From Candidatus Brocadiia bacterium (lineage in GTDB: Bacteria; Planctomycetota; Brocadiia; CAIUPP01), in contig JBEKCB010000013.1 in NCBI GenBank assembly GCA_050015075.1, positions 1-64,000 on the forward strand: DNA of 64,000 nt. The letters are read 5' to 3'. Below the pieces are notes generated by a model. That model searched no databases. It was not told where the DNA came from and worked only from the letters and a program-made list of their open reading frames with translations. Made by a program: the position numbers and the translations under genes. Shown in pieces: positions 3,407 to 21,090 of this stretch (its first letter is position 1; every line of letters begins with the position of its first letter).

Positions 3407-3430
3407 CGAATGCCGAGGGGCGATCGCCGA

Positions 3431-5038
3431 ATGCCGATGGATGAGAATCGAATGGCCCTGAAAGATTCCAAGCGCGCGCGGGTGATGGCGCGGTCGAAGA
3501 AGCTCGGACACTGCATCTGCGACCCGCGAAAGGCCTGCCCCTGCAACCTGCTGATTGAAAAGGACGTCTGCCTTTGCGCCGGCGAGCGGCTGCCGGCGGA
3601 ACGGCGCGGGACTGCCGCGCCGAACGCGGCGCTGACGAAGCTGGTCAAGAACGCCGGCTGCGCCTCGAAAATTCCCGCCGCGGAACTCGCCAAAATCCTG
3701 GCACGGCTGCCGGCGGTCAGCGATCCGCGCCTGCTCGTCGGGCTCGGCACCGCCGACGACGCGGGCGTCTTCCAGGTCAGCCCGGATCTCTGCCTGGTGC
3801 AGACGGTGGATGTCTTCGCTCCGTGCGTGGACGATCCGTACCTCTTCGGCCAGATCGCGGCGGCGAATTCGCTGAGCGACGTGTACGCGATGGGCGGCGC
3901 GCCGCTGACGGCGCTCTCGATCGTCGGCTGGCCGATCCACACGCTGAGCGACGAGTGGCTCGTCCGCATGCTCGAAGGCGGCATGGACAAGCTGCGCGAG
4001 GCGGGCGTCATCCTCGTCGGCGGGCACAGCATCAACGACGAGGAGATCAAGTTCGGGTTCGCGGTGACCGGCACCATCCGGCCGGACGCCATCGTGGCGA
4101 ACTCCGGCGCGCGGCCGGGCGACGCGATGATCCTCACCAAGCCGGTCGGCACGGGCATCATTTCCTTCGCCGCGCAGATCGGGCGCGCCTCCGCCGAAGC
4201 GCTGCGCGCCGCCGGCGAGAGCATGGCCGCGCTCAACCGCGGCGCCGCGCAGGTCATGTGCCGCGCCGGCGCGCATGCGGGGACCGATGTCACCGGCTTC
4301 GGCCTGCTCGGCCATCTCTGGCAGGTCGCGCGCGAGAGCGGCGTGACGGCCGAACTCTGGTGGGACGCGGTCCAGGCGCTGCCGGGAGCCCTCGAATGCG
4401 CCCGGCAGGGCATCGTCTCCGGCGCGGCCGAGCGCAACCGCGAGTTCGCCGGCCCGGCGGTGACCGTCGCCGCCGGCGTGCCGGAATACGCAATGGACCT
4501 GCTCTACGACGCGCAGACTTCCGGCGGGCTGCTGATGTTCGTGCCGGAGCAGGCCGCCGGGCGGACCGTCGCCGAACTGCGCGCCGAAGGCTGTTCTTCC
4601 GCGGCCGTCGTCGGCCGCATTCTGGGGAAATCAAAAGGAGGGATCATCGTGGCGAAAAAACGCGACTCCGCACCCCGCACTCCGCCGCCCGACGCGGCTC
4701 GCGGCGCTGAGCCTGTCGAAGGACACGCCGCAGCCGAAAAGTGCTGCTCGACGGAATCAGCGCCTGCCGGCTCCGCCGGCTCGCCGCAGGAGGCGTTCCA
4801 GGATTTCATGGGAAAGGCCTTCGCGCCCGGCGCGCTCGACGCGGTGCAGAAGGAGATCATGACCATCGCGCTCTCGGTCGCCGTGCAGTGCGAGCCATGC
4901 CTGAAGATCCACCTGGAGAAGGCGCGCAGCATGGGCATCAGCCCCGACGAAATCCGCGAAGCCGCCTGGATGGGCATCGTGTTCGGCGGCTGCAAGGCGA
5001 TGATGTTCTGGAAGGAGAAGGGGCCGAAGGACGGATGA
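3431..5038 (+). CDS. selD: Selenide, water dikinase SelD with an N-terminal Cys-rich extension and a C-terminal CMD/AhpD-like domain
   Basis: SelD motifs LTKLVKNAGCASK (Cys form), DDAGV, VQTVD, FGQIAAANSLSDVYAMGG, GGHS, TDVTGFGLLGH and DAQTSGGLL. N-terminal HCICDPRKACPC..CLC. C-terminal GALDAVQKEIMTIALSVAVQCEPCLKIH. Confidence 0.95.
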   Translation: MPMDENRMALKDSKRARVMARSKKLGHCICDPRKACPCNLLIEKDVCLCAGERLPAERRGTAAPNAALTKLVKNAGCASKIPAAELAKILARLPAVSDPRLLVGLGTADDAGVFQVSPDLCLVQTVDVFAPCVDDPYLFGQIAAANSLSDVYAMGGAPLTALSIVGWPIHTLSDEWLVRMLEGGMDKLREAGVILVGGHSINDEEIKFGFAVTGTIRPDAIVANSGARPGDAMILTKPVGTGIISFAAQIGRASAEALRAAGESMAALNRGAAQVMCRAGAHAGTDVTGFGLLGHLWQVARESGVTAELWWDAVQALPGALECARQGIVSGAAERNREFAGPAVTVAAGVPEYAMDLLYDAQTSGGLLMFVPEQAAGRTVAELRAEGCSSAAVVGRILGKSKGGIIVAKKRDSAPRTPPPDAARGAEPVEGHAAAEKCCSTESAPAGSAGSPQEAFQDFMGKAFAPGALDAVQKEIMTIALSVAVQCEPCLKIHLEKARSMGISPDEIREAAWMGIVFGGCKAMMFWKEKGPKDG

Positions 5039-5095
5039 CGGGCGATGGCTGAGTGCTGATCGTTGACCGGCAACCGCCGGAGAAAGGAGCGGAAC

Positions 5096-5875
5096 ATGGC
5101 CCTCGGAAAAAATCACGTGCTGGTCATCGTCGCCATCGCGGGCATTATGGCGCTCACACTGGCCGGGGCTGGCCTGTTCAGCGGGAAGCAGGGGCCCGGC
5201 TATCTCCGGATCAACGTCTCAGACAAGAGCGCCGCCTACCTTGAATTTGAAGGCGCGGCCCTGCGCGCCGCGGCGAGCATGGAGGGACTGAAGACCGCGG
5301 AGCCGCTGCCGCTGCGTGCGCTGAATTTCCGGGCGGCGCAGTCCAGGGAGTTCACACTCCCGATTCCGGCCGATCAGCTTCCCGCAGGCGTCAGCGCCGT
5401 CAAGGGGATCTTCACGCGGACGGGGAGCAATGTCTCGGGCCAGATGGGAATCTGCCGGACGGACGCGCAGAAAGTCGTCTGGCAATGCGACGCAGGGATC
5501 TTGTCGGGGACCGGCGATCATGCGGAGGCGGCGCCGGCCATCCAGTTGCCAAGCCTGGAGACGCTTGCGCTGGTTGTCACGGGCGCGCCCTCGAATGGGA
5601 AACTGGGCATCGGTGTGCGGCTCGCGGCCGGCGACAACCCGGTGACCGGCGTGCTCAAGGATGGAAAGCCCGTGCCGGTCCAGGTCAGCGTGACGGACGC
5701 CGCCGGCAAAGAGGTGGCCGCGCGGAAAGGGCCGTTGACTGATTTCGGGTTCAGTTGAGGCGGCCCCTGCTGCTCCGTCGGAGTGGCGAAAGGCACGTAC
5801 ACGGTTTCCGCGACTCTCGACGCGGGGCCGTTCGGGTCCGCCGTGAAAGGCCAGGCGAAGGTCGTCGTGCCGTAG
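5096..5875 (+). CDS. Putative exported selenoprotein, paralogue 1 (Sec at TGA 5756-5758; U-G-G-P-C-C), 259 aa
   Basis: AAGGAG RBS and an N-terminal hydrophobic segment. The in-frame TGA is followed by 38 codons (GGPCCSVGVAKGTYTVSATLDAGPFGSAVKGQAKVVVP-TAG) that are conserved in the three downstream paralogues. SECIS-like hairpin at 5769-5787. Confidence 0.88.
5769..5787 (+). promoter_or_regulatory. Bacterial SECIS-like hairpin (paralogue 1)
   Basis: GCTGCTCC-GTC-GGAGTGGC: 8-bp stem with two G-U wobbles, starting 11 nt after the UGA. Confidence 0.8.
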
Positions 5876-5889
5876 CCGCCCGCTGGCTC

Positions 5890-5937
5890 GTAGTGTGCCC
5901 GCCAGGGCATACGAAGCAGCGCCTGACGGCGCCACTA
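5890..5937. repeat. GTAG-type REP-like element (second copy at 34283-34330)
   Basis: GTAGTGTGCCCGCCAGGGCATACGAAGCAGCGCCTGACGGCGCCACTA is near-identical to 34283-34330. Both copies sit just after stop codons. Confidence 0.75.
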
Positions 5938-5970
5938 TAAGCTGCCCGTGAGATTCCGCGGCCCGCTCCA

Positions 5971-6141
5971 CTAGATACGTATCGCACCTAGTCGAGTGCC
6001 GGGTCTGGCGGTCGCCTTTCGTGAGCCGGTTGCGCTGCGCCGGATGAGGGACTAGATACGTATCGTATCTAGCGGCGGCTGAAGCAAGCGAGCGGTTGCA
6101 GGATCACCCGCGGCGCAACGCTAGTTACGTATCGTATCTAG
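5971..6141. repeat. Three 21-bp palindromes, consensus CTAGATACG-TAT-CGTATCTAG
   Basis: Copies at 5971-5991, 6052-6072 and 6121-6141, separated by unrelated 60- and 48-bp gaps. Confidence 0.85.
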
Positions 6142-6206
6142 TGGCAGGCTGACGGATGAGGGGGCGCGCTTCGCGGGGCGGGCGCGGCGCATTCTGAAGT
6201 TACTCC

Positions 6207-6235
6207 TTGACAGACGCGACTTTGTGCCATACGCT
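6207..6235 (+). promoter_or_regulatory. sigma70-type promoter of paralogue 2
   Basis: TTGACA-N17-TACGCT. Confidence 0.6.
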
Positions 6236-6278
6236 TACGCTTGTGAGCCGAACAGGGCATTTGGCGAAGGGTGCCCGC

Positions 6279-7091
6279 ATGTCTCTATGCGGCCGCAGGG
6301 CGCGGGCCGTCGCGATGGCGGGCGCCATGGCGCTGGCGTGGCTGTGGGCCGGCACCAGCTCTGCGCAGACCTCGCAGAAGCCGGCCTTCGCGCGGCTCGC
6401 CGTGTCGGAGAATAGCGTCGTTTACATTCAGATCGAAGGCGGCGAACTCCGCGCGGCGATGAGCGCCGAGGGCTTGCAGACCGCCGCGCCGGTCAGGATG
6501 ACCGCGGAGTCCGCCTACGTAATCGCGTCCCCCGAATTCACGCTGCCCATTCCGGCCGAGCGACTGCCCGCCGGCGTCACGGCGATCAAAGCAACCCTGA
6601 CGCTGATGCAGATTCCGCCATCCACATTGCGGTCCGAGTGGCCGCCCCGTATTAGCGGCAGGTTCAGGATCTTCCGGACCGATGACCGGAAAGTGGAATG
6701 GCAATACGCGTCGTCCGGCGAGGTGCTGACAGGGGCGAACGCGGAGGAAGCGCCGTCCATCATGCTGCCCAACCTGGACAAAGTGAACGCCCGCCTGGCG
6801 GCCGCAGTGAGTGGAGGAACGCTGAGAGTGAACCTGGGGGTCAACGCCGGCGGCGCGCTCCTGGCCGGCGTGCGCAAGGCCGGCCACATGGTCCAGGTGA
6901 AGATGGTCGTGACGGACGCCTCCGGCGCCGTAATCGCCTCGAAAGTCGGGACGCTGTCCGACTTCGGGTTCAGTTGAGGCGGCCCGTGCTACTCCGTTGG
7001 AGTAGCCAAAGGGACTTACACCTGCACCGCGACGATGGATGTCGGGACCGGTTCGCCGCTGAAGGCAACGGCGACGGCTGCGGCTCCGTAA
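6279..7091 (+). CDS. Putative exported selenoprotein, paralogue 2 (Sec at TGA 6975-6977; U-G-G-P-C-Y), 270 aa
   Basis: Signal peptide ending ...LAWLWAGTSSA. After the TGA the frame continues GGPCYSVGVAKGTYTCTATMDVGTGSPLKATATAAAP-TAA. Hairpin GCTACTCC-GTT-GGAGTAGC at 6988-7006. Confidence 0.88.
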
Positions 7092-7185
7092 CGAGAGATT
7101 GCGCGGGTCCGGCGCCTGCGCTTGGGCGGCAGCGGCGTCATAAGTACGAGCCTGTCGCGCGAGGTGCGGAAGAGGAGGCGAGGCT

Positions 7186-7968
7186 ATGTTGCGATCTTGC
7201 GGCAAGAGGCTGATCGTCGCAGTGGCGGGCGTTGCGGCGCTGATGTGGGTCGGGGCCGGCTGCACCTCCGCGCAGGTCTCGCAGGGGCCGGCGTTCGCCC
7301 GGCTCGCCCTGTCGGAGAAGAGCGCCGTCTGCATCCGGATTCAAGGCGGCGAAGTCCGCGCGGCGATGAGCGCCGAGGGCTTGCAGACCGCCGAGCCGGT
7401 CAAAACGCACACCGAATTCACGCTGCCGATTCCGGCCGATCAACTGCCCGCCGGCGTCACGGCGATCAAAGCGAACCTGGCGCTGATGCAGATTCAGACG
7501 GCCGCGTCGGCCGCGCTGGCGCCCTACATTAACGGCACGTTCAGGATCTTCCGGGCGGATGACCAGAAGGCGGAATGGCAATTTGTGTCGGCCGGCGGCG
7601 GCCTGGCCGGGGCGAACGCGGAGAAAGCTCCATCCATCAAGCTGCCTGACCCGGACAAGTTGGACGCCAGCCTTTCGGCCACGGTCACTGGAGAAAAGCT
7701 GGCCGTCGGCCTTCGGGTCACTGCCGGCGGCGCGACCTTGACCGACGTGCGCAAGGACGGGCACCTGGCGGTGGTGAAGATGGTCGTGGCGGACGCCTCC
7801 GGCGTCGAGATAGCCTCAAAAGTCGGCACGCTGGCCGATTTCGGGTTCAGTTGAGGCGGGCCCTGCTACTCCGTGGGAGTAGCTAAAGGGACTTACACCT
7901 GCACCGCCACGCTGGATGTCGGGGCCGGTTCGCCGCTGAAGGCAACGGCGACGGCCGTCGTCCCCTAG
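7186..7968 (+). CDS. Putative lipo-selenoprotein, paralogue 3 (Sec at TGA 7852-7854), 260 aa
   Basis: GAGGAGG RBS and lipobox-like VGAGC. After the TGA the frame continues GGPCYSVGVAKGTYTCTATLDVGAGSPLKATATAVVP-TAG. Hairpin GCTACTCC-GTG-GGAGTAGC at 7865-7883. Confidence 0.88.
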
Positions 7969-8059
7969 CGAGGGATTCTTCGGTCCGGGCTTGTGTTTCG
8001 GCGGCGGCGGCGCTATAAACAAGGACGTGTCGCGCGAGGCGCGAAAGAGGAGGTGGGTT

Positions 8060-8827
8060 ATGTTGAGGGTTTGCAGCAGGGGGCTGGCCGTCGCGGCGTG
8101 CGCCGCGGCGCTGGCTTTGATCGGGGCCGGCTGCGCGGGAGTGCAGACCGCGCAGGCGCCGGCGTTTGCCCGGATCCCCCTGTCGGAGAACTGCGCCGTC
8201 AGCATTCAGATTCAAGGCGGCGAAGTCCGCGCGGCGATGAGCGACCAGGGAGTGCAGGCCGCCGCGCCGGTCAAGGCGGGCTCCGAATTCGCGCTGCCCG
8301 TTCCGGCCGATCAACTTCCCGCCGGCGTCACGGCAATCACCGCGAGCCTGTTGCTGACGCAGTATCAGTCGGGCGAAAACGCCGCGGTTGTCGGCCAGCT
8401 CACGGTCTTCCGGACCGATGACCAGAAGGCGGAATGGAAGTACGTGTCACAGCTCAGCGTCCCGGCCAGGGTGAACTGGGATCACGCGCAGTGCATCAAG
8501 TTGCCCGATCCGGCTGATGTGAAGGCCAGCCTCGAAGCCACGCCCGCCACAGGAAAACTTTCCATCGGCCTCAGGCTCACCCTCTATGGCGCCGCGATGG
8601 CCGACGTTCGCAAGAACGGCAAGCCGGTCCAGGTGAAGATGGTCGTGGCGGACGCCTCCGGAGCCGAGATCGCTTCAAAAGTCGGGACGCTGGCCGACTT
8701 CGGGTTCAGTTGAAACGGCCCCTGCTACTCCGTGAGAGTAGCTAAAGGAACTTATACATGCACGGCCACGGTGGAAGTCGGCGCCGGTTCCCCGCTCAAG
8801 GCGGAAAAGACGGTCACTGTGCCGTAA
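8060..8827 (+). CDS. Putative lipo-selenoprotein, paralogue 4 (Sec at TGA 8711-8713; U-N-G-P-C), 255 aa
   Basis: GAGGAGG RBS and lipobox-like IGAGC. After the TGA the frame continues NGPCYSVRVAKGTYTCTATVEVGAGSPLKAEKTVTVP-TAA. Hairpin GCTACTC-CGTGA-GAGTAGC at 8724-8742. Own promoter TTGTGT-N17-TATAAA at 7991-8019. Confidence 0.88.
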
Positions 8828-8853
8828 TCGCGCGAGACGGTTTCGGACATTTC

Positions 8854-8890
8854 AAGGGCGCTGGCTGATTCGGCCGGCGCCCTTTTGTTT
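8854..8890 (+). terminator. Intrinsic terminator after paralogue 4
   Basis: AAGGGCGCTGGCTG-ATT-CGGCCGGCGCCCTT followed by TTGTTT. It lies just after the extended stop codon (TAA 8827), not after the TGA. Confidence 0.75.
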
Positions 8891-8900
8891 CTGGCGTGTA

Positions 8901-8991
8901 TCGTACTCGTCCTCGTCCTCGGCCGCACGAAACGGCCGTTCGAGGACGAGGACGAGGACGAGGACGAAAACGGCGACGAGCACGAGGACGA
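8901..8991. repeat. (CTCGTC)n/(GACGAG)n palindromic repeat (second copy at 12080-12166)
   Basis: Inverted hexamer arrays that produce spurious LVLVLV/EDEDED ORFs. Confidence 0.8.
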
Positions 8992-8998
8992 CTGGCGC

Positions 8999-9096
8999 GG
9001 GAGCGGATGGGTCCTGGTGGATCTTGCTCCGCTTCAAACGGAGTGCGGGGCCCTGATAAGGTCCTAGGTGGGTTCGATTCCCACACGCTCCCGCCA
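8999..9096 (+). tRNA. selC: tRNA-Sec (anticodon UCA)
   Basis: 8-position acceptor GGGAGCGG/ACGCTCCC followed by GCCA. 6-bp D stem with a 4-nt TGGT loop. Anticodon arm CTCCG-CTTCAAA-CGGAG with TCA at 9034-9036. Long variable arm and T arm GTGGG-TTCGATT-CCCAC. Confidence 0.97.
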
Positions 9097-9159: not shown

Positions 9160-9828
9160 ATGGGAGAAACTGCCTTGAGCCGCGACAAGATCCTCGAAGA
9201 ACTCGCCCGAACGGTCGTGGCGATGGACGAAGCCGGGGCCGTGGCCGCCGCGCACAAGGCGCTCGCGGGCGGCGTGGACCCGTACGTGGCGATCAACGAC
9301 GGGCTCGCCGTCGGCATGCGCGAGGTCGGGCGGCTCTACGACACGGGCGAATACTTCGTCCCGGAAATCCTCATCTGCTCCGACGCGATGAACGCCGGGA
9401 TCGCCGTCCTCAAGCCGCACATCCGCCGCGCGCCGGGCCGCGAGCCGGTCACCGTCATCCTCGGCGTCATCGAGGGCGACATCCACGACATCGGCAAGAA
9501 CATCGTCAAGATCATGCTCGACGCCTCCGGCTTCCAGGTCGTGGATCTCGGCCGCGACGTGAGCGCCGAGCGCTTCGTCCAGGCCGCGCGCGAGGCCAAG
9601 CGCGGGCTCGTCGGCCTCTCCACGCTCATGTCCACCACCATGGAGAACATGGGCAAGGTCGTCAGCGGCCTCTCCGACGCCGGGCTGCGGAAGGAGTTCC
9701 GCGTGATGCTCGGCGGCGCGCCCTGCTCGGAGGCCTTCGCGCGCGAGATCGGCGCGGACGGGTTCGGGCGGAACGCCAGGGAGGCGGTCGAACTCGCGGA
9801 ACGGTTGTCCGGGAAATTGGGTGATTAG
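9160..9828 (+). CDS. Methyltransferase-cognate corrinoid (B12-binding) protein, MtaC/MtbC-like
   Basis: Cap domain GLAVGMREVGRLYDTGEYFVPE and B12 motif EGDIHDIGKNIV..DLGRDV..GLSTLM..MLGGAP. The start is ATG 9160 or TTG 9175; the longer ORF-track start overlaps the tRNA. Confidence 0.93.
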   Translation: MGETALSRDKILEELARTVVAMDEAGAVAAAHKALAGGVDPYVAINDGLAVGMREVGRLYDTGEYFVPEILICSDAMNAGIAVLKPHIRRAPGREPVTVILGVIEGDIHDIGKNIVKIMLDASGFQVVDLGRDVSAERFVQAAREAKRGLVGLSTLMSTTMENMGKVVSGLSDAGLRKEFRVMLGGAPCSEAFAREIGADGFGRNAREAVELAERLSGKLGD

Positions 9829-9928
9829 GAGATTGGGAGATTAGGTGATTAGGAAATTAGGAGCTTGGGTGATTGAGTTTGGCGATTTTCGCCACCCAAT
9901 TTCCCAATTTCCTAATCTCCCAATCTCC
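9811..9928. repeat. Inverted octamer array (TTGGGAGA/TCTCCCAA type; similar element at 54441-54551)
   Basis: Tandem ~8-bp units followed by their reverse complements. Confidence 0.75.
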
Positions 9929-9953
9929 AGTTGTGAATCAGCAAGGAACTGAA

Positions 9954-10988
9954 ATGCCCAGTGACAAGATGTCGCCCGCCGAACGCTTCACCGCCTTCCT
10001 CAGCGGCAAGCCGATGGACCGCTTCCTGTGCGTGCCGCTGATCCTCAACCATGCCGCGCGCGTCCTCGGCGTGAAGGTCGGCCGGTACAACCGCGACGGC
10101 CGGCTCATGGGCGAATGCCATGCGGCGGCGTACCGGCGCTACGGGCACGACATGATCGCGATCTTCTCGGATACCGCGATCGTCGCCGAGGCGATGGGCA
10201 CGGAACTTTACTATCCGGAGGACGACGTCCCGCGCGTCGAGCGGCCCGCGCTCGCCGACCCGAAGGACCGCAGCCGGCTCGTCACCGCCGACTGGGCCGA
10301 CCGGGGCAAGCTGCCGGTTTTCTACGAGGCGATCCGCGTCGCGGCCGAGGCGCTCCACGGCGAAGCGCCCATCGGCTGCTGCGTCCCGGCGCCCTTCACC
10401 ACCGCCGCCTGCCTGCGTGGCACCGACCAGCTCGCGCGCGACCTCTACCGGAACCCGGCGCTCGCGCATGAACTGCTCGCCCTCGCGCTCGAAGCGGCGA
10501 AGCAGTTCGCCGGCCGCATCATGGATTCGGGCGGCGTGCCGGTGGTCGTGGACCCGGTCGCCACCGGCAGCGTCCTCGGCCGGCGGCAGTTCGAGGAGTT
10601 CGCGCTGCCGTACCTGAAGCCGCTTCACGCGCACGTCGCCGCGCGCGGGTTCCCGGTGGTCCTGCACATCTGCGGACAGACCGCGCGCACGCTCGATCCC
10701 ATGGCCGAATCCGGCGCGGCGCTGCTGAGCCTGGACGACATCTCGATGGCCGAGGCGCGCGACCGCGTCGGCGGCCGCGTGGCGCTCATGGGCAACGTCC
10801 GGCCCGCGCAGACGCTCCTGAAGGGCAAGCCGGAAGACGTCCTCCGCGAGGTCCGCGACCTGTGCGACATCGGCCGCAAATGCCAGGCCGGTTTCATCCT
10901 CGGCAGCGGCTGCGAAGTCCCCATCGCCAGCCCGCCGGAGAACATAGACGCCATGATGGCCGGCGTCAGAGAATACGGGAGAATGTAG
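9954..10988 (+). CDS. Uroporphyrinogen decarboxylase-fold methyltransferase (MtaA/CmuA family)
   Basis: Zn-binding HICG motif, C-terminal GFILGSGCEVPIASPPENI, GNVRP and APFTTA. Adjacent to the corrinoid protein. Confidence 0.88.
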   Translation: MPSDKMSPAERFTAFLSGKPMDRFLCVPLILNHAARVLGVKVGRYNRDGRLMGECHAAAYRRYGHDMIAIFSDTAIVAEAMGTELYYPEDDVPRVERPALADPKDRSRLVTADWADRGKLPVFYEAIRVAAEALHGEAPIGCCVPAPFTTAACLRGTDQLARDLYRNPALAHELLALALEAAKQFAGRIMDSGGVPVVVDPVATGSVLGRRQFEEFALPYLKPLHAHVAARGFPVVLHICGQTARTLDPMAESGAALLSLDDISMAEARDRVGGRVALMGNVRPAQTLLKGKPEDVLREVRDLCDIGRKCQAGFILGSGCEVPIASPPENIDAMMAGVREYGRM

Positions 10989-11040
10989 CAAGGCGCCGGA
11001 AATACGTCCCATATTTCCCATCAATCACATAGGCCCCATT

Positions 11041-12075
11041 ATGTCCTTCACAGCGCGCAGCCGGCTTACCGGCGCCCTTCGCCGCGAACCGGTGGACCGC
11101 CCGCCGGTCATCTGCCCCGGCGGCATGATGACCATGGCCACCGCATCCGCCATGCGCCGAGTCGGCCGCGCCTGGCCGGCGGCGCACTCCGACGCGCGCG
11201 CGATGGCCGAGATCGTCCTCGCCACGCGCGACGAGACCGGGCTCGAATGCCTCGCCGTCCCGTTCTGCATGACCGTCGAGGCCGAAGCGCTCGGCTGCAC
11301 CGTGGACATGGGCAGCGCAACCGTGCTCCCGCACGTCGCGGTCGAATGCATCCGCGATCCGGCGGAGGTCGGCGGCCTGCCGGAGTTCAACCCGGAGCGC
11401 TCCGGCCGCGCGCCGGTGGTGCTCGAGGCGATCGAGCGGCTGAAGAGCGCCTGCGCCGGCGCCCCGGTCCTCGGCGGCGTGCTCGGCCCGGTCACGCTCG
11501 CGGCGATGATCATGGATGCCGGCCTCTTCCTGCGCCTGACGCGGCGCGACCCGGCCGCCGCCGAACAATTCATCGCCGCCCTGGAGCCGGTCGTGGTCCG
11601 GTTCGCGCTCGCGCAGCACGCCGCCGGAGCCGACTGCGTCACCGTGGCCGAGCCTTCGGCCACCGGCGAAGTGCTCGGCGGAAAGCACTTCGAGAAGCTC
11701 GCCGCGCCCGCGCTCGTCCGCGTCCTCCGCGCCTTGCGCGACGGCGGGGCATCGCCTATACTGCATATATGCGGCGACCTGCGGCCGATCCTGCCGCAGG
11801 TGGCGCTCATCGCGCGCAAGCTCGACGCGCCGCTGGCGCTCAGCGTGGACGCGATGGTCAGCGGGCGCGACTTGCAGGCGGCGCTGCCGGAGGTCGTGCG
11901 CGTCGGGAACGTGGACGCGCTCCTGCTGCAGCGCGAAGATGTCGCAACGGTTGAGCGCGTGGCGCGCGCGGCGGCGCTCGATTTCGACATCCTCTCGCCC
12001 GCCTGCGGCCTGGTCCCCACGACGCCGGCGGAAAACCTGCGGGCGATGGTCCGCGCGGCGCAGCGGCAATTATAA
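11041..12075 (+). CDS. Methylcobamide methyltransferase (MtaA/MtbA family)
   Basis: DRPPVICPGGMM, VPFCMTVEAEALGC, LHICG and SPACGL. Confidence 0.9.
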   Translation: MSFTARSRLTGALRREPVDRPPVICPGGMMTMATASAMRRVGRAWPAAHSDARAMAEIVLATRDETGLECLAVPFCMTVEAEALGCTVDMGSATVLPHVAVECIRDPAEVGGLPEFNPERSGRAPVVLEAIERLKSACAGAPVLGGVLGPVTLAAMIMDAGLFLRLTRRDPAAAEQFIAALEPVVVRFALAQHAAGADCVTVAEPSATGEVLGGKHFEKLAAPALVRVLRALRDGGASPILHICGDLRPILPQVALIARKLDAPLALSVDAMVSGRDLQAALPEVVRVGNVDALLLQREDVATVERVARAAALDFDILSPACGLVPTTPAENLRAMVRAAQRQL

Positions 12076-12212
12076 GCGCATCGTACTCGTCCTCGTCGTC
12101 GTCCTCGTCCTCGGCCGTTCAGAACGGCGATTCGAGGACGAGGACGACGACGAGGACGATTACGATAGGTTGCGATTAACGCGCGTCGTATCCTCTGATG
12201 AGAGCCTTGTGA

Positions 12213-13386: not shown

Positions 13387-14790
13387 ATGTCGGACGATTC
13401 CGCGCTCCTGCGCCAGTTGCCGCGCGTGGACGACTTGCTCGTCCATCCGCGAATGGCCGCGGTTCCGGCGGCGCATGCGCTGGCTTTGAAGGCCGCGCGC
13501 GAGGCGGTGGCCGAGACGCGCGCGCGGCTTCTGGCGGGCGAAAGCGCGGTGGACGCGAGCGCCGACGCCGTCGCGGCGCGCGCCGCGGAGATCCTCGAAC
13601 GCGCCGCCGCGCGCAGCCTGCGCCGCGCCGTCAACGCCACCGGCGTCCTGCTCCACACCAACCTCGGCCGCGCGCCGCTCTCGGACGCCGCGCAGCGGGC
13701 GCTCGCCGACGTCGCCGGCGGGTTCTGCAACGTGCAGGCGGACCTCGGCTCCGGCCGCCGCTCCGAGCGCGAGGACCACGTGCAGGGCCTCTTCCAGGCG
13801 CTCACCGGCGCGGAGGCGGCGCTCGTCGTCAACAACAACGCCGCCGCGACCGTGCTGGCGCTCAACACGCTCGCCGCCGGGCGCGAGGTGATCGTCTCGC
13901 GCGGCGAGATGGTCGAGATCGGCGGCGCGTTCCGCATCCCGGAAATCCTCAAGCTCGCCGGCTGCCGGCTCGTCGAGGTCGGCTGCACCAACCGCACTCA
14001 CCTGCGCGATTACGAGCGCGCCCTCACGCCCGAGACCGCGCTGATCCTCTCGGTCCACCAGAGCAACTATCGCATCGTCGGGTTCGCCGAGCAGACGCCC
14101 GTGCGCGAGCTGGCCGAGCTGGCGCACGCCCGCGGGATTCCCTGCGCGCACGACCTCGGCAGCGGCGCGCTGCTCGACCTGCGCGCCTACGGCCTGCCGC
14201 ACGAGCCGACCGCGCCGGAGAGCCTGGCCGCCGGCGCGGACGTGACGCTCTTCAGCGGCGACAAGCTGCTCGGCGGACCGCAGTGCGGCATCCTCCTCGG
14301 CAAAAAGGCGCCGCTGGCGGCGATGCACAAGAACCCGTTCTACCGCGCGTTCCGCGTCGGCAAGCTGACCCTGGCCGCGCTCGAGGCGACGCTGCGTCTC
14401 TTCCTCGAGCCGGAGACGCTGCTCGAGAAGCACCGGCTTATGTCTCTGCTGACGGCCCCGCTCGAAGGAATCCGCCGCCGCGCCGAGTCGCTCGCGCAGG
14501 AAATCGCCGCCTCGTGCGCCGGCTGGCTGGCGGCCGAGGCGCAGGCGGGCGAATCGGAAATCGGCGGCGGCTCGCTCGCCGGATATCCGATCCCGACCGT
14601 CGTGGTCCGCCTGAGCCCGAAGGGCCTCTCACCCGACGACTTGGCCGCGCGCCTGCGCCAGTCCGACCCGCCGATCTTCACCCGCGTCCACGAAGGCTGC
14701 GTGCTCCTCGACGTGCGGACCATGCTTCCCGGCGAAGAGCGGCTCATCGTCGAGGCGCTGAAGCGGATCGGGGCTAAGGTCCAGCAATGA
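13387..14790 (+). CDS. selA: L-seryl-tRNA(Sec) selenium transferase
   Basis: LRQLPRVD, NATGVLLHTNLGRAPL, VVNNNAAA, SRGEMVEIGGAFRIP, EVGCTNRT, DLGSG and the PLP lysine motif FSGDKLLGGPQ. Confidence 0.98.
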   Translation: MSDDSALLRQLPRVDDLLVHPRMAAVPAAHALALKAAREAVAETRARLLAGESAVDASADAVAARAAEILERAAARSLRRAVNATGVLLHTNLGRAPLSDAAQRALADVAGGFCNVQADLGSGRRSEREDHVQGLFQALTGAEAALVVNNNAAATVLALNTLAAGREVIVSRGEMVEIGGAFRIPEILKLAGCRLVEVGCTNRTHLRDYERALTPETALILSVHQSNYRIVGFAEQTPVRELAELAHARGIPCAHDLGSGALLDLRAYGLPHEPTAPESLAAGADVTLFSGDKLLGGPQCGILLGKKAPLAAMHKNPFYRAFRVGKLTLAALEATLRLFLEPETLLEKHRLMSLLTAPLEGIRRRAESLAQEIAASCAGWLAAEAQAGESEIGGGSLAGYPIPTVVVRLSPKGLSPDDLAARLRQSDPPIFTRVHEGCVLLDVRTMLPGEERLIVEALKRIGAKVQQ

Positions 14791-15200
14791 GGACACTTGT
14801 AAGACTTTCCGCAGTCCTGCCGATCGTCTTATTCCTTTGTGGATGCATGACGCCGGATATTGTCGTAGTTGACGATGAAGGCGTTCCGGTGGCAGGTGCT
14901 TCGATAACGTACCACTCTCTTTCAATCAGCGGCCCAACAACGACAGATAGGCGAGGAGGCGCTTCGATTCCCTGGGCCCTGCAAGAGATCAAGTGGATTT
15001 CGGTGGCAAAACAAGGCTATGCCTTCGTATGGGCTTCGGGGATGAACAAGGTTGACGTGAATCAACCGAAGTATTTTAACCTGCCGGTCCTGAACGTTGA
15101 GGTGAATCAGCCGGAGCCTATCAAGCGACCGCCTACCGCGTCGCCCTTCGTTGACGTAAATCAACCGAAGCCTATCAAGATAGTCTTGAAGAAATATTGA
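14787..15200 (+). CDS. Hypothetical lipoprotein with three V(D/E)VNQP repeats
   Basis: Lipobox LFLCGC and a VVDDEGVPVAGASI beta-sandwich-like start. Visibly lower GC than the flanks. ATGA overlap with selA. Confidence 0.65.
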   Translation: MRTLVRLSAVLPIVLFLCGCMTPDIVVVDDEGVPVAGASITYHSLSISGPTTTDRRGGASIPWALQEIKWISVAKQGYAFVWASGMNKVDVNQPKYFNLPVLNVEVNQPEPIKRPPTASPFVDVNQPKPIKIVLKKY

Positions 15201-15234: not shown

Positions 15235-17145
15235 TTGGATATTCCTCCGCGCCACATCATCTTCGGCACCGCCGGGCACGTGGACCATGGGAAGTCCATG
15301 CTGGTCCTGGCGCTGACCGGGACCGATCCGGACCGGCTGGCCGAGGAGAAGGCGCGCGAGATGACGATTGATCTCGGCTTCGCTTTCCTCCCGCTGCCCG
15401 GGATCGCCGGCGCCGTCGCGATCGTGGACGTGCCCGGGCACGAGATGTTCCTGCGCAACATGGTGGCGGGCGCGACCGGGATTGACGCGGCGATGCTCGT
15501 GATCGCGTGCGACGAAGGGGTGATGCCGCAGACCGTCGAACACCTCGACGTCTTGCGCTGCCTGCGCATCTCCGAAGGCGTCATCGTCCTGACCAAGGCC
15601 GACAAATCGCCGGACCTGATCCCGGCGGTGACCGAGGAGGCGCGCGAGCTGGTGCGCGGGACGTTCCTGGAGAAGGCGCGGGCCATCCCGGTCTCGTCGG
15701 TGACCGGCGAAGGGCTGCCTGCGCTCAAGGAAGAGCTGGCGCGGATCGCCGCGCGCGTGCAGGCGCGCTCGGCCGAGGGGATCTTCCGCCTGCCGATTGA
15801 CCGCGTCTTCACGCTCAAGGGCGTCGGCACCGTCGTCACCGGCACGGTGATCTCCGGCTCGCTGAAGACCGGCGAGACGGTCGCCTGCCTGCCGCAGAAT
15901 TCGGCGCTGCGCGTGCGCGGGCTCCAGGTGCACAACGAGGCGGCGGCGGAGGTCTTCGCCGGCCAGCGCGCGGCGATCAACTTGGCGGACGCGTCGAAGG
16001 AGGACCTGGAGCGCGGCAATGTCCTCGCCGCGCCGGGCATGCTGGCGCCGACGCTGATGGCCGACGTGCGGCTGGAGCTTTCGCTCCGGTCGCCGAAGCC
16101 GCTGGCGCAGCGCGCGCGGGTGCGCATCCATCACGGGACCAGCGAGCTGATGGCGCGCGTGGTGCTGCTCGACCGGGAGTCGCTGCCGGCCGGCGAGTCG
16201 GCGCTGGTGCAGTTGCGTTTCGAGTCGCCGCTGGTCGCAGCCGCCGGCGACCCGTTCGTCGTCCGCTCGTATTCGCCGATGTTCGTCATCGGCGGCGGCA
16301 GCGTCGTGGACCCGCATCCGCCCAAGCGCCGGAAAGCCGCCGGCGCGGAGGACGTGGCGAAGCGCGAGAGTTCACCGGTCGCCGATGTGATCCTTGACGC
16401 GCTTGACCGCGCCGGCGCGCGCGGGGTGGAGTTCGCCCGGCTCCGGATCCATTGCGGGATCGGCGACGACGCGCTCCGGTCCGCGCTGGCCGGGATGAAA
16501 ACGGACGCGCTCGCCGCCGACGGCCGCCGCGATGTCTGGTTCAGCGCCGGCGCGCTCCGCGAGATGCAGGCGGCGATCACCGCGCGGCTGGCGCGCCTGC
16601 ACGCCGAGGAGCCGCTGCGCCCGTTCGCCGCGCTCAACCAGGTCTCCGCCGGCGCCGCGCCCACGCCGGAGTCGCGCGAGTGCTTCCGCCTGGCGCTCGA
16701 CGGACTGCGCGACCGCGGCGAAGTGATCGCCGCCGGCGAGCGGCTGCGCCTGGCGACTCACCAGCCGCAGTGGGTCGGCCGCTACGCGGCGGTTCGCGAG
16801 AAGCTGCTGGCGCAGTCCCGCGAGAGCGGCCTGGCCGTGCCGGCCGTCGCCGAATGGGCGCCACGAGTCGGGCTGTCCGAGCCGGACTGCCGGCGCTCGC
16901 TCGACGCCCTGGCCGAGGCGGGCGAATTAGTCCTGCTCGCCCCCGGCATTTATGTCCACCCCGAGTGTTTCAGCGGCGCGCGCGACCGGGTGAAGGAATT
17001 CCTGGCGAAGAACGGCCGAATGAATATCGCGCAGGCGCGCGATCTGCTCAGCGCCTCGCGCAAGTACCTGCTCCCGTTCCTCGAAGAACTGGACCGGCAG
17101 CGCGTCACCGCGCGGCAGGGCGACTTCCGGGTTCCCGCTTCTTGA
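15235..17145 (+). CDS. selB: Selenocysteine-specific translation elongation factor
   Basis: GTAGHVDHGKS, EEKAREMTIDLGFA, DVPGHE, NMVAGATG and TKAD. C-terminal winged helix SRKYLLPFLEELD..T.RQGD.R. Confidence 0.98.
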   Translation: MDIPPRHIIFGTAGHVDHGKSMLVLALTGTDPDRLAEEKAREMTIDLGFAFLPLPGIAGAVAIVDVPGHEMFLRNMVAGATGIDAAMLVIACDEGVMPQTVEHLDVLRCLRISEGVIVLTKADKSPDLIPAVTEEARELVRGTFLEKARAIPVSSVTGEGLPALKEELARIAARVQARSAEGIFRLPIDRVFTLKGVGTVVTGTVISGSLKTGETVACLPQNSALRVRGLQVHNEAAAEVFAGQRAAINLADASKEDLERGNVLAAPGMLAPTLMADVRLELSLRSPKPLAQRARVRIHHGTSELMARVVLLDRESLPAGESALVQLRFESPLVAAAGDPFVVRSYSPMFVIGGGSVVDPHPPKRRKAAGAEDVAKRESSPVADVILDALDRAGARGVEFARLRIHCGIGDDALRSALAGMKTDALAADGRRDVWFSAGALREMQAAITARLARLHAEEPLRPFAALNQVSAGAAPTPESRECFRLALDGLRDRGEVIAAGERLRLATHQPQWVGRYAAVREKLLAQSRESGLAVPAVAEWAPRVGLSEPDCRRSLDALAEAGELVLLAPGIYVHPECFSGARDRVKEFLAKNGRMNIAQARDLLSASRKYLLPFLEELDRQRVTARQGDFRVPAS

Positions 17146-18306: not shown

Positions 18307-19020
18307 ATGGCGGCGCCGAAACTCAGCGTGGTGATCCCGGCGTATAACGAGGAAGAGTGCATCGGCGACTGCGTCCGCGAGGTCTGCTCGGTGATGGACC
18401 GGCTGGGACAGGCGTACGAGGTCGTCGTCGTGGATGACGGCAGCACCGACTCGACGCCCGAGCGGCTGCGCGCGCTCAGGCCGCAGTTCCCGGCGCTGCG
18501 CGTGGTGCGCATCCTGAAGAACTCCGGCGAGACGGCGGCCACCGACGCCGGCTTCCATGCCGCCCGCGGCGAGTTGATCGCCACGGTGGACGCCGACCTG
18601 CAGAACGATCCGGCGGACATCCCGAAAATGGTCGCGATGATGAACGACTGGGATGTCGTCTGCGGCGTGCGCACGAAGCGCGAGGACTCGTTCGTGCGGC
18701 GCGTCTCGTCGCGCGTGGCGAACTGGTCGCGCAACAAGCTCACGCGCGAGAGCATCACCGACGTCGGCTGCACGATGAAGGTCGTCCGCGCCTCCTACGC
18801 GAAAAAAGTGAAGCTCTTCACCGGCATGCACCGCTTCCTGCCGACGCTCCTGCGCATGGAAGGCGCGCGCGTGACGGAGATCCCCGTCAATCACCGGCCG
18901 CGCCTCAAGGGCCATTCCAAGTACGGCGTCTGGAACCGCGTGTTCCGCGGATTGTACGACCTGTTCGGCGTTCGGTGGATGCAATCACGCTGGCTGCGAT
19001 ACGAAAGCAGGGAGGAATGA
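18307..19020 (+). CDS. Glycosyltransferase family 2 (polyprenol-phosphate glycosyltransferase, ArnC/Dpm1-like)
   Basis: SVVIPAYNEE, VDDGSTD, DADLQNDP, HRFLP and SKYG. Upstream TTGACA-N18-TAAGAT at 18232-18261. Confidence 0.92.
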   Translation: MAAPKLSVVIPAYNEEECIGDCVREVCSVMDRLGQAYEVVVVDDGSTDSTPERLRALRPQFPALRVVRILKNSGETAATDAGFHAARGELIATVDADLQNDPADIPKMVAMMNDWDVVCGVRTKREDSFVRRVSSRVANWSRNKLTRESITDVGCTMKVVRASYAKKVKLFTGMHRFLPTLLRMEGARVTEIPVNHRPRLKGHSKYGVWNRVFRGLYDLFGVRWMQSRWLRYESREE

Positions 19021-19337
19021 GAGTGGACTGGGCAGCGATCTGGACCTGGCTTGGCCAGCAGTGGGGCTTGTGGAAGCTGATCGGCTACGCGGGCAATGCG
19101 GCGTTCGCCACGCGGTTCTTGATCCAATGGATCGCCTCCGAGCGCGCGGGGAAGAGCATCATCCCGGTGCAGTTCTGGTACATGAGCATCGTCGGCAGCG
19201 TCATCCTGGCGGTTTACGCCTTCCACACGGGCGACCTCGTGGTCATCTTCGCCTTCGCCCCGAACAGCCTGGTCTATATCCGCAACCTTATGCTGCTGCA
19301 CAAAGAGAAAAAAGCCAAACAGGCCGGCGCGGCGTGA
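19017..19337 (+). CDS. Lipid-A-disaccharide synthase N-terminal domain (LAB_N) membrane protein
   Basis: F.TRFLIQWIASERAGKS..P..FWY.S..G and YIRNL. Confidence 0.9.
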   Translation: MRVDWAAIWTWLGQQWGLWKLIGYAGNAAFATRFLIQWIASERAGKSIIPVQFWYMSIVGSVILAVYAFHTGDLVVIFAFAPNSLVYIRNLMLLHKEKKAKQAGAA

Positions 19338-19421
19338 AGACGAACGTCTTTGCCACGGATTGCACGGATTAACGACAGAGAGCGTCAAAGGGTTCACTGT
19401 TGACTTCTACGGCATAAGACC

Positions 19422-20894
19422 ATGCTGATAGATACCAAGTACCGCATTCCGGTCTACCTGAGCCTTCTTCTTTGCGCCATCCTGTGCCTCACGATGAATC
19501 TTTATGGCGTTACCCTGGATGAGCCGGTGTACCTAACTGCCGGGCGCACCTATATTGTATGGGCTGAGCATCCCATAAAGCATAATCTGGATTCCTACTG
19601 GATGTATGGCCAGGAGCATCCTTCTTTTGGAAAAGTTCTGGGCGGGCTCACTTGCTATATATTCCATGATAAGCTGGGCACAGTCGGCTTAGTCAAAGCT
19701 TTCAGGCTGCAGAACCTGATCTACTGTTTTGCGTTCTGTTTCATTATGTATTGGTGGATGCAGGAACTCACCAATAAATACATGGCGATTGCCGCTGTCC
19801 TCGTTGCGTGTTTTCTCCCCAGAATGTACTTCAGCGCGCACATCGGGATGCTGGATTATCCTGTCACGGTCCTGATCTTCCTGGCATCCTATGCGTTCTG
19901 GAAAGGCTTGAGCGATCCGAAGCATATCATTACCGCTTCCATCCTGACAGGGCTTGCATTAGTCACAAAAATCAACGGCGCTTTTCTATATGTCTTTCTC
20001 ATTTTCTGGCTGGTCATAGCCTGGAGAAAGGAGTTGAGGGACAGGCTGTGGTACATCTTGTCATTGATAGCTTTTCCGCCCGTCGTTTTTGTTTTATTGT
20101 GGCCCTGGTTGTGGCATCATCCTGTGGCGAGGATCCTCGGTTATTTCATTCGATTGAAGGATCATCGTCCTATACCGCTGTACTATCTGGGGCAGATATA
20201 TTATGGGAACAGCCCGTGGCACTATCCGTTTGTGCTAATGTTAGCCACGCTGCCTTGCATCATCCTGCTGGCGCTAGTGTACTATGGAGTGGCCGCGAGG
20301 AAGAGAGCGGTAGATTACTTCCTGATTGCCGGCGCCTTGATACCGCCGGCGGCGATCGCATTCTTTTCGCCTTGCAAGAACGACGGTGTAAGGCTGTTTC
20401 TGCCCGCGTTCCCCTTTATCGCCATGCTGGCATCGCTGGGAATCTATGAATTCTTCAAGAGATATACGCATACCAAGCTGGCAATATTCAGTGTCCTGTT
20501 ATGCCTTTCCATTGCATTCGCGATAGGCAAATATCACAGGTACCAGGAATGCTATTACAACGAGCTAGTCGCCGTCAGCCATACGGACGCGGCCTTCGAG
20601 ACCGAGTATGAGAACTGCGCCTACCAGGAGCTTGTACCGTGGCTGAATGAACATCCTCATATCAAGCTTTATGCGCCTGTTATGGGCGACCATCTGATGA
20701 TTCACCAGGCGCTGGGGACATTAAGCACGTCTGTCGAAGGCAGTGCCTACAAAGACGCAGACTATGTTGTCATACTTGCGAGAGAGGGCAGCTTTGACGA
20801 GGTCGCCTGGAGTTATTACTACTCGAACGAGACTCCAGTCTTCGCGATCAGGGAAGGGAACGGCATTCCGATACTAAGCGTTTATAAGAAGTAG
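19422..20894 (+). CDS. ArnT/PMT-family (GT-C) membrane glycosyltransferase
   Basis: TLDEPVY, EHP, many TM helices and RLFLPAFPF. Markedly AT-rich compared with the flanks. Confidence 0.82.
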   Translation: MLIDTKYRIPVYLSLLLCAILCLTMNLYGVTLDEPVYLTAGRTYIVWAEHPIKHNLDSYWMYGQEHPSFGKVLGGLTCYIFHDKLGTVGLVKAFRLQNLIYCFAFCFIMYWWMQELTNKYMAIAAVLVACFLPRMYFSAHIGMLDYPVTVLIFLASYAFWKGLSDPKHIITASILTGLALVTKINGAFLYVFLIFWLVIAWRKELRDRLWYILSLIAFPPVVFVLLWPWLWHHPVARILGYFIRLKDHRPIPLYYLGQIYYGNSPWHYPFVLMLATLPCIILLALVYYGVAARKRAVDYFLIAGALIPPAAIAFFSPCKNDGVRLFLPAFPFIAMLASLGIYEFFKRYTHTKLAIFSVLLCLSIAFAIGKYHRYQECYYNELVAVSHTDAAFETEYENCAYQELVPWLNEHPHIKLYAPVMGDHLMIHQALGTLSTSVEGSAYKDADYVVILAREGSFDEVAWSYYYSNETPVFAIREGNGIPILSVYKK

Positions 20895-20931
20895 GGAGGC
20901 GCGGAGCGGCGGAGTTCGGCGTCGCCCGGTT

Positions 20932-21090
20932 CTATGGCGTGACTTTGATCCAATCCAGCTTGCGCATGCACATGGGCAATGAGCGTCTGCCCAGGTGGTT
21001 TTTCAGGCACTCGCAGCAAATGCCGCGGCGCTCGCAGTCGGTGTTCGGACACGCGCACTTTTCCTTGTTGGCCTCGAGCGTACAGTCCAT
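20932..21090 (-). CDS. Small Cys-rich protein (DUF6485-like), 52 aa
   Basis: MDCTLEANKEKCACPNTDCERRGICCECLKNHLGRRSLPMCMRKLDWIKVTP. AAGGAAG RBS and a minus-strand promoter TTGTAA-N17-TATACT at 21162-21190. Absent from the ORF track. Confidence 0.8.
   Translation of the reverse strand: MDCTLEANKEKCACPNTDCERRGICCECLKNHLGRRSLPMCMRKLDWIKVTP

Follow-up and report, generated by a model that had tools for sequence, protein, structure and literature searches.

A predicted mlp-type corrinoid methyltransferase cassette is an optional insert in the selenocysteine operon of a Brocadiia bacterium

Introduction

A corrinoid protein and methyltransferases have been linked to the use of dimethylselenide in Methanococcus voltae (PMC10418091 and the excerpted text of PMC11097638), and a very similar operon of M. 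maripaludis is up 5.6-7.8 log2-fold under selenium depletion (same excerpt of PMC11097638). Kountz & Balskus (bioRxiv 2023, PMC10418091) include the M. voltae Sdm proteins in a wider family and define 'type 1 mlp gene clusters', holding Mlp2 and Mlp3, which are proposed to recover selenium from methylated selenium compounds. Here we analyse a trio of genes of this kind, encoding a corrinoid (B12) protein and two MtaA-type zinc methyltransferases (positions 9160-12075), in a 64,000-nucleotide window of high-GC DNA from an uncultured Candidatus Brocadiia bacterium. The window comprises positions 1 to 64,000 of contig JBEKCB010000013.1 (C13) and belongs to a 4.64-Mb genome (G000) that is 93.6% complete.

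According to the working definition of PMC10418091, an mlp gene cluster comprises a minimum of two Mlps together with a corrinoid protein and an activase of the Ram/RACE type, encoded co-directionally with no divergent gene between them and with components at most 2 kb apart; no tetrahydrofolate methyltransferase lies within 20 kb. Type 1 clusters were reported in more than 100 genera (73% Firmicutes), and also in Brocadia and Jettenia. Selenocysteine (Sec) machinery is present in 87% of the species with a type 1 cluster and several clusters contain selABCD; about 10% of clusters are assigned to sulfur metabolism ('non-selenium'), and the species table lists a few as 'missing Ram/RACE'. The gene order in C. 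ljungdahlii is Mlp1, Mlp2, corrinoid protein, Mlp3, Ram, and the Mlp2 of this species (ClMlp2) moves a methyl group from methylcobalamin to selenide in vitro with an apparent KM of 79.8 uM, also using sulfide at a 4.3-fold slower rate than selenide. The same work classes both SdmB and SdmC as Mlp2s, the Mlp1 and Mlp3 of M. voltae having escaped notice. So far, the proposal of corrinoid-based selenium recovery in bacteria is built on a single genetic study in an archaeon, a single preprint and a single slow reaction in vitro.

New at the locus described here are an optional cassette at a fixed site of a sel operon that occurs in two phyla, a cluster with no activase gene of its own, and two so far undescribed partners in the operon. 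The position of the cassette directly behind tRNA-Sec in both phyla is some of the tightest genomic linkage yet, and natural cassette-plus, cassette-minus and decayed variants show where a selenium-supply phenotype could be sought in metagenomic and metatranscriptomic data.

The corrinoid protein and the two zinc methyltransferases

The corrinoid protein combines cap and Rossmann B12 domains (B12-binding_2, E 2.6e-22; B12-binding, E 1.5e-24) with a GDIHDIG version of the DxHxxG motif, and scores 201 bits against TIGR02370 ('methyltransferase cognate corrinoid protein'), slightly below the cut-off of 215.3. Both methyltransferases have the URO-D (TIM-barrel) fold, and their zinc-ligand motifs (HICGQ...GSGCE in the first enzyme, HICGD...PACG in the second) align with HiCG and PgCG of the MtaA structure 4ay7, with E values of 9.5e-24 and 5e-43, respectively. 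The ligands H265/C267/C347 of the first enzyme are kept in 74/75, 75/75 and 75/75 rows of its clade, those of the second (H242/C244/C322) in 80/80, 80/80 and 79/80 rows, and both enzymes display the His-Cys-Cys zinc coordination sphere that is typical of the family. All three genes lie on the + strand, separated by gaps of 125 nt (44 nt if the first enzyme started at TTG 9873) and 52 nt. The first enzyme probably starts at ATG 9954 rather than at TTG 9873, because its homologues align only from residue 24-30.

The methanogen enzymes MtaA, MtbA and MtsA share the fold and the aligned HxC and C motifs with this pair, and the second enzyme clears NF004889 ('methylcobalamin:coenzyme M methyltransferase') with 295.4 bits against a cut-off of 244, which the first does not. 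In contrast, both are far under the equivalog cut-offs for MtaA_Meth (213.5 and 127.6 bits against 400) and MtbA (172.2 and 109.4 bits against 600), and the window offers no methanogenesis context. Predicted from fold, ligands, cofactor motif and clade, a function in corrinoid-dependent Se/S methyl transfer is well founded. The sequence-only reading of this DNA had described one B12-binding protein and two HxC...C URO-D enzymes, co-oriented after tRNA-Sec, and every feature that it described is confirmed. It had also remarked on the lack of an MtaB/MttB-type substrate enzyme; indeed none is encoded on the window's contig, with PF12176 (MtaB) matching nothing in the whole genome and PF06253 (MttB family) matching five genes, all on other contigs.

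Placement among mlp gene clusters

To place the two enzymes, genome contigs were scanned with an alignment of the second enzyme's relatives, and the 80 best loci, all named records, were kept and mapped by tblastn. Two gene orders recur: corrinoid protein-Mlp-Mlp-Ram in Brocadia, Jettenia and other Planctomycetota, and [short Mlp]-[Mlp]-corrinoid protein-[Mlp]-Ram in Clostridium (e.g. C. thailandense, L067). A FastTree phylogeny was built from 183 URO-D proteins of these loci and rooted on the genome's HemE-like gene, with the names Mlp1, Mlp2 and Mlp3 assigned from gene order in the Clostridium loci rather than from sequences of the PMC10418091 authors. The first enzyme groups with the genes in Mlp2 position (67-row core, support 98), and the second with the genes located between corrinoid protein and Ram, i.e. 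Mlp3 (80 rows, support 83), a placement with which a quick IQ-TREE phylogeny of Mlp3 agrees. A third clade, Mlp1 (27 rows, support 100), consists of the short first genes and is sister to Mlp3 (support 99), matching PMC10418091. Within Mlp3, the window's enzyme falls in an 11-row clade (support 99) together with all sel-embedded copies, the copy of locus L004 and rows from short Armatimonadota contigs.

The trio thus named combines one gene for a protein with B12-binding_2 and B12-binding domains with two genes of the URO-D/MtaA family, all co-directional, within 2 kb of each other and with no divergent gene between them; by clade placement both Mlp2 and Mlp3 are present. No tetrahydrofolate methyltransferase is found by Pfam across 1-64 kb, the upstream side extending only 9.1 kb to the contig start. 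The order corrinoid protein-Mlp2-Mlp3 is that of the Brocadia and Jettenia clusters of PMC10418091 and, as for the described clusters, the host is anaerobic and has Sec machinery. The window's cluster differs from them in lacking Mlp1 as well as the Ram/RACE gene required by the working definition, in its fixed site inside a sel operon beside a gene for a NapH-like protein, and in its hosts, a non-anammox Brocadiia family and Armatimonadota, which are absent from the PMC10418091 species table.

A similar comparison holds for SdmABC (Niess & Klein 2004, as conveyed by citing papers): it too has one corrinoid protein and two URO-D-family methyltransferases tied to selenium supply, and the same chemistry has been proposed for it in those citing texts. 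However, the window has one Mlp2 and one Mlp3 in place of two Mlp2s, and its host is a bacterium without coenzyme M metabolism. The tree contains neither SdmB/SdmC nor the methanogen coenzyme M methyltransferases MtaA, MtbA and MtsA, and the link of the trio to Sdm rests on the inclusion of the Sdm proteins in the family by PMC10418091 rather than on a comparison of Sdm sequences. The sequence-only reading had pointed to sdmABC, correctly in light of PMC10418091 and the excerpted PMC11097638, and had suggested a bacterial counterpart that frees selenide for SelD. This suggestion coincides with the published type 1 mlp hypothesis, into whose Mlp2 and Mlp3 clades the two enzymes are placed. As the hypothesis is already in print, the idea is not new; judged by its sequences, the trio is a member of a family previously described with the same proposed function.

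Methyltransferase and activase genes elsewhere in the genome

The five PF06253 genes, on C18, C9, C2, C4 and C1 (L190-L194), have unrelated neighbours and none is beside a corrinoid protein gene. There are only two cap-domain corrinoid proteins in the genome, the window's being one and the other adjoining PocR-GAF-SpoIIE and kinase genes; PF02607 (the B12-binding cap domain) has no genome match beyond these two, nor is there a MetH-type match. The genome has no other MtaA-type system. With five orphan MttB-superfamily proteins and so few corrinoid carriers, these proteins might all feed one general methylotrophic pathway, of which the trio would be the common downstream half, and the window's corrinoid protein does score well on the MtbC and MtgC models, yet under their cut-offs. 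We regard this as very improbable. Known bacterial MttB systems pass the methyl group to tetrahydrofolate via a pterin-binding enzyme, not an MtaA-type one (PMC10418091), and Pterin_bind matches are restricted to C30, C56 and C6, with none on the window's contig. Furthermore, orthologous clusters occur in genomes and at loci without any MttB link, and the trio is co-located with sel genes rather than with any MttB gene.

Matches to PF14574 (Ram/RACE) are confined to C6, within a carbon monoxide dehydrogenase/acetyl-CoA synthase cluster, and C20, where the gene is an orphan. A 62-row Ram phylogeny joins the genome's own two RACE proteins to each other on long branches, a position that does not tie the C20 protein to the cluster type. 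A C20-type RACE orthologue is present in 5/5 relatives searched, including G094, a genome with no Mlp2, selA or napH-like match; there is therefore no exclusive tie of this RACE to the cassette. Some of these orthologues contain in-frame TGA codons (two in G093:C29:86146-88050, one in G097:C113:8435-10297), which may be Sec codons, frameshifts or assembly errors.

An optional cassette at a fixed site in the sel operon

The full order selD...tRNA-Sec-corrinoid protein-Mlp2-Mlp3-napH-like-selA-selB is also found at 90-97% identity in G095/L003, a 'Candidatus Brocadiia bacterium' metagenome-assembled genome (MAG) that is the closest named relative (90% identity in the second methyltransferase). 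Another genus of the same family has it as well (G093/L090; 60-73% protein identity, with one paralogue of the candidate selenoproteins), as does the Armatimonadota locus L178 (63-72% identity). Four metagenome contigs (61-95% identity) hold parts of the order, cut by contig ends: tRNA-Sec through the trio to napH-like in L105 and L106, the trio and napH-like in L093, and Mlp2, Mlp3 and napH-like in L104. The recurrence in another genus, in Armatimonadota and on several metagenome contigs indicates that the arrangement is not due to chance.

A NapH-like polyferredoxin gene is located between the trio and selA. A metagenome scan with an alignment of its orthologues yielded 80 loci, mapped by tblastn: 18 orthologue loci (L091-L108, L091 being identical to the window) and 62 distant paralogue loci. 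Cassette genes lie upstream in 7/18 orthologue loci (L091, L093, L095 with Mlp3 only, L097, L104, L105 and L106), tRNA-Sec is immediately upstream with no cassette in 5/18 (L096, L098, L101, L103 and L108), and neither cassette nor tRNA-Sec is present within 7.5-10 kb in 2/18 (L099 and L102); three (L094, L100 and L107) are too short to score. Among 351 Armatimonadota genomes sampled, five contain the polyferredoxin orthologue. All five have selD-tRNA-Sec-[...]-polyferredoxin-selA-selB, with the trio in the gap of one (L178). The sel operon selD-tRNASec-napH-like-selA-selB is common to one Brocadiia family and some Armatimonadota, and within it the trio is an optional insert with a single site, between tRNA-Sec and the NapH-like gene.

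Decayed copies mark the same site. L092, with ~90-94% DNA identity to the window, keeps only remnants of the cassette (corrinoid protein residues 1-18, Mlp2 231-273 and Mlp3 234-342), and L095 (4300-5500) retains a stub of the corrinoid gene plus Mlp3 residues 123-341. Despite this decay, napH-like and selA are intact in both loci. The cassette site of L092 (L092:8700-10000) also harbours an inserted nucleotidyltransferase-like ORF.

Gene-neighbourhood and genome co-occurrence with sel genes had been named as checks by the sequence-only reading, and both turned out in its favour. The neighbourhood is, as shown above, conserved across genera and two phyla. For co-occurrence, 132 genomes of the class were surveyed, in which Mlp2 is found in 39 and selA in 66; selA is present in 37/39 Mlp2-positive but only 29/93 Mlp2-negative genomes, counts that are uncorrected for kinship. 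The two Mlp2-positive genomes without a selA match are drafts of 400 and 510 contigs. Mlp2 and selA are both absent in genus g21 (0/4 each), G094, G017 and G027, and family f4 has selA in 14/14 genomes and Mlp2 in none.

These distributions bear on whether the trio could be a methyl-sulfur system, acting in methionine or methylthio salvage as the 'non-selenium' type 1 clusters do and merely riding on a mobile sel island. In the family, ~10% of clusters are assigned to sulfur and ClMlp2 also used sulfide, more slowly than selenide (PMC10418091). In L004, a relative from another family, the trio stands alone among unrelated genes beside an S-adenosylhomocysteine hydrolase region, away from sel genes, and loss of the cassette leaves the sel genes in place. 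We nevertheless consider a methyl-sulfur role unlikely, given that the insertion site right after tRNA-Sec is kept across two phyla and that Mlp2 is nearly confined to selA-positive genomes in the class. In addition, the window's Mlp3 is apart from the single 'non-selenium clade' reference compared (the second S. malonica cluster, L181), and no MarHDK-like or methionine-salvage genes occur within the window.

Proposed mechanism

On balance, we think it rather probable that the trio is a Ram-less type 1 mlp cluster for Se/S methyl transfer, built into the Sec operon as an accessory selenium-supply cassette. In the proposed cycle, the His-Cys-Cys zinc site of Mlp2 (9954-10988) would take up methylselenol, dimethylselenide or another Se-methyl compound of this sort. 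Mlp2 would transfer the methyl group to the corrinoid protein (9160-9828) in its Co(I) state, and selenide or selenol would be freed. Mlp3 (11041-12075), the closer MtaA relative, would then unload methyl-Co(III) onto a thiol acceptor, regenerating Co(I). The freed selenide would pass to SelD and on to SelA and tRNA-Sec, all encoded alongside, and oxidised Co(II) would probably be re-reduced in trans by the RACE-type activase from C20.

The observed basis of this model comprises the domains, motifs, clades, fixed-site synteny, selA co-occurrence and deletion in sister lineages; the M. voltae genetics and the in vitro transfer by ClMlp2 are taken from the literature and would apply here by analogy. 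Inference enters with the substrate, with the direction in which methyl groups move, and with acceptor and activase: selenium is preferred over sulfur because of context and co-occurrence, and demethylation because of the archaeal physiology, with the thiol acceptor and the C20 activase being guesses. If the model is right, the locus shows that an in-cluster activase is not obligatory.

Several observations weigh against the supply model. No PF14574 match is present on the window's contig, when a Ram match is seen in 63/80 related loci. Adjacency to sel genes is unusual for the family, given that among the 80 best loci selA and selB are near the cluster in one (L003) and selD in two (L003, and L016 at 9 kb distance), and in anammox relatives with complete genomes (G020) cluster and selA are >100 kb apart. 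The selA contrast is descriptive and carries no statistical test, because the genomes are kin. The cassette is dispensable, and its gain or loss leaves the sel genes unharmed. Finally, as both enzymes share a soft-ligand zinc site, donor and acceptor, as well as Se and S, are indistinguishable from sequence.

This last point also permits the system to run backwards. With two His-Cys-Cys enzymes the net reaction amounts to a reversible methyl exchange between two soft nucleophiles, and the trio could methylate surplus selenide or selenols, with methyl groups drawn from a methyl-thioether via Mlp3, to yield volatile or less reactive methylselenides. The sole in vitro activity on record for the family is in fact the transfer from methylcobalamin to selenide by ClMlp2, a direction that was chosen for convenience (PMC10418091). 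The neighbouring selD fits detoxification as well as supply, and methylation would shield the cell at the point where free selenide is handled by SelD. On the other hand, M. voltae and M. maripaludis employ the homologous system, and induce it, when starved of selenium rather than when it is in excess, as far as the excerpted sources go; a dedicated enzyme for donating methyl groups (MtaB, MttB or pterin methyltransferase) is missing from the locus; and a selenium-wasting activity inside a Sec-tRNA operon is hard to explain. Reverse operation therefore appears improbable to us.

The NapH-like polyferredoxin

The gene between Mlp3 and selA, which went unmentioned in the sequence-only reading, encodes a protein with four CX3CP-type motifs, one CxxCx6CP motif and two CxxCxxCxxxCP [4Fe-4S] motifs, and 18 Cys are invariant across the orthologue alignment. 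Its homologues split into an orthologue group with 45-100% identity and a broad paralogue set with 33-41%. selA is directly downstream in 12/12 orthologue metagenome loci with more than ~1 kb of downstream sequence and in 5/5 Armatimonadota loci. In contrast, none of the 62 distant paralogue loci has a match to an mlp gene cluster (MGC), selA, selB or selD, although one of them (L156) has a tRNA-Sec ~0.5 kb upstream of the NapH-like gene. As the polyferredoxin is kept before selA with or without the cassette, it is part of the sel operon and not of the cassette.

The NapH/NosR/MauN polyferredoxins have the same Fer4_5 CX3CP membrane domain and two C-terminal [4Fe-4S] motifs. The window protein is, however, far under the corresponding cut-offs (NapH, 66.8 bits against 234; NapH/MauN, 63.5 bits against 213), has the additional invariant Cys motifs CxPVLNCYxCx6CP and CxxxCPxG, and is flanked by the Mlp3 gene and selA rather than by nap or nos genes, its orthologues being tied to tRNA-Sec and selA. 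The words 'ferredoxin' and 'NapH' occur zero times in PMC10418091, and neither a NapH-like sel-operon protein nor a corrinoid selenium system was found in the excerpted texts of PMC5029168, 10.1101/2022.07.06.499078 (Haft) and PMC13188914 (2026 review).

The NapH-like gene directly follows Mlp3, the position occupied by Ram in Brocadia-type clusters, which raises the prospect that the polyferredoxin replaces Ram as reductive activator of the corrinoid in a membrane-powered cluster variant. The protein weakly resembles HgcAB-like and HgcB ferredoxins, which reduce corrinoids, with matches at E 4.4e-8 and 7.5e-6 that fall well short of the cut-offs. RdhC-type relatives have been proposed as electron donors to corrinoid dehalogenases. 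We hold such a replacement to be highly unlikely, as the distribution of the gene with or without the cassette largely refutes it: the orthologue is present in cassette-free loci (L096, L098, L101, L103, L108, L176, L177, L179 and L180) and persists where the cassette has decayed (L092), whereas the stand-alone trio of L004 has no NapH-like gene. The orphan RACE gene on C20 also speaks against a need for it.

Candidate exported selenoproteins and the SelD fusion

Upstream of tRNA-Sec, four ORFs (5063-8713 as called mechanically) that match no family are paralogues with 34-62% identity. All have a hydrophobic segment at the N-terminus, a signal or an anchor, and an in-frame TGA followed by a conserved 37-38-residue tail (...FGFS-U-GGPC-YSVGVAKGTYTCTA...VP), with an 8-bp hairpin beginning 13 nt past the TGA; two of the four folds have a z-score < -2. 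In 11 other loci, TGA and tail are kept in 19/20 homologues whose alignment reaches the site, with Cys in the remaining one. A HMMER search of 1.84 billion representatives retrieved 162 relatives at E<=0.001, most of which end at the residue before the TGA, and the few full-length relatives either have Cys at the TGA site or have lost the motif. No Pfam or NCBIfam match was obtained for the family, even with the TGA read through, and a protein atlas search with one paralogue returned nothing usable (best feature score 0.83, TM-score <=0.34).

The family is found in 4/132 genomes of the class, each with a copy beside tRNA-Sec or selA. G000, G095 and G100 hold a further copy elsewhere, the fifth copy in the window genome being G000:C3:112633-113265. 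From their sequences, the paralogues appear to form a family of exported selenoproteins that has escaped annotation and accompanies the sel operon.

SelD itself is extended by a C-terminal CMD/AhpD domain (residues 460-531) with a CEPC motif, and this fusion is kept in the sel operons of both phyla (L003, L090, L092, L095, L098 and L177-L180). At its N-terminus, SelD has a Cys-rich extension of ~70 residues (HCICDPRKACPCN...CLC).

It is conceivable, though we hold it only tentatively, that the trio is an optional add-on to a membrane electron relay in which the NapH-like protein and the exported Sec-x-x-Pro-Cys proteins deliver selenide to the SelD-AhpD fusion. Such a relay would reduce extracytoplasmic selenium species or the exported selenoproteins themselves, and the corrinoid cassette would add methylated selenides as a second selenium source. 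The NapH-like polyferredoxin and the candidate exported selenoprotein family may matter more than the cassette.

Operon layout and neighbouring features

The features of the locus are compiled in Table 1.

Table 1 Features of the sel operon and flanking repeats in the window
Feature	Position	Strand	Evidence
selD (selenide, water dikinase), Cys form	3410-5038	+	TIGR00476 362.8 bits; AIRS, AIRS_C and CMD domains
Four tandem candidate exported selenoprotein genes	~5063-5875, 6207-7094, 7186-7968, 7991-8830	+	In-frame TGA; hairpin resembling a selenocysteine insertion sequence (SECIS)
tRNA-Sec (selC), anticodon TCA	8999-9096	+	ARAGORN; Rfam RF01852 60.9 bits against gathering score 47
Corrinoid (B12) methyl-carrier protein, DxHxxG	9160-9828	+	Pfam B12-binding_2 + B12-binding
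Mlp2-type URO-D-fold zinc methyltransferase	9954-10988 (mechanical ORF from TTG 9873)	+	URO-D 260.5 bits
Mlp3-type URO-D-fold zinc methyltransferase	11041-12075	+	URO-D 231.1 bits; NF004889 295.4 bits
NapH-like membrane polyferredoxin, 300 aa	12213-13115	+	Fer4_5 72.5 bits
selA	13387-14790	+	TIGR00474 533.3 bits
Lipoprotein-like ORF, 137 aa, overlapping the selA stop	14787-15200	+	No Pfam/NCBIfam family
selB	15235-17145	+	TIGR00475 344.2 bits; SelB wing and beta-barrel domains
Three long palindromic intergenic hairpins	8885-8998, 9826-9930, 12076-12170	.	Fold z-scores -4.2, -6.9, -9.2

By a consensus scan only, the sole terminator-like site of note is at 8854-8884, upstream of tRNA-Sec, and no strong-stemmed terminator is detected on the + strand from tRNA-Sec to selB; this stretch hence reads as a single unit. 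The 137-aa ORF that overlaps the selA stop codon has an LFLCGC motif. By tblastn it matches only the window and the identical contig L091, with no match in L003 or L090.

The palindromic hairpins reach -83 kcal/mol and are built from GTCCTC/GAGGAC-type or GGAGATT-type units. Those at 8885-8998, 9826-9930 and 12076-12170 recur at 67, 17 and 89 places in the genome, respectively. They constitute two repeat families akin to repetitive extragenic palindromes (REP-like), with ~67-89 and ~17 genome places, and are not cassette borders; their genome-wide spread rules out the notion that those flanking the cassette are the ends of a mobile element.

The remainder of the window (18-64 kb) consists of polysaccharide synthesis genes, which hold no further clue to the function of the trio. 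GC content is 0.63-0.74 across most of the first 18 kb and falls to 0.52-0.53 at 19001-21000, compared to ~0.65-0.70 around it. A PMT_2-type glycosyltransferase gene is located in this dip (19422-20894) and is possibly foreign.

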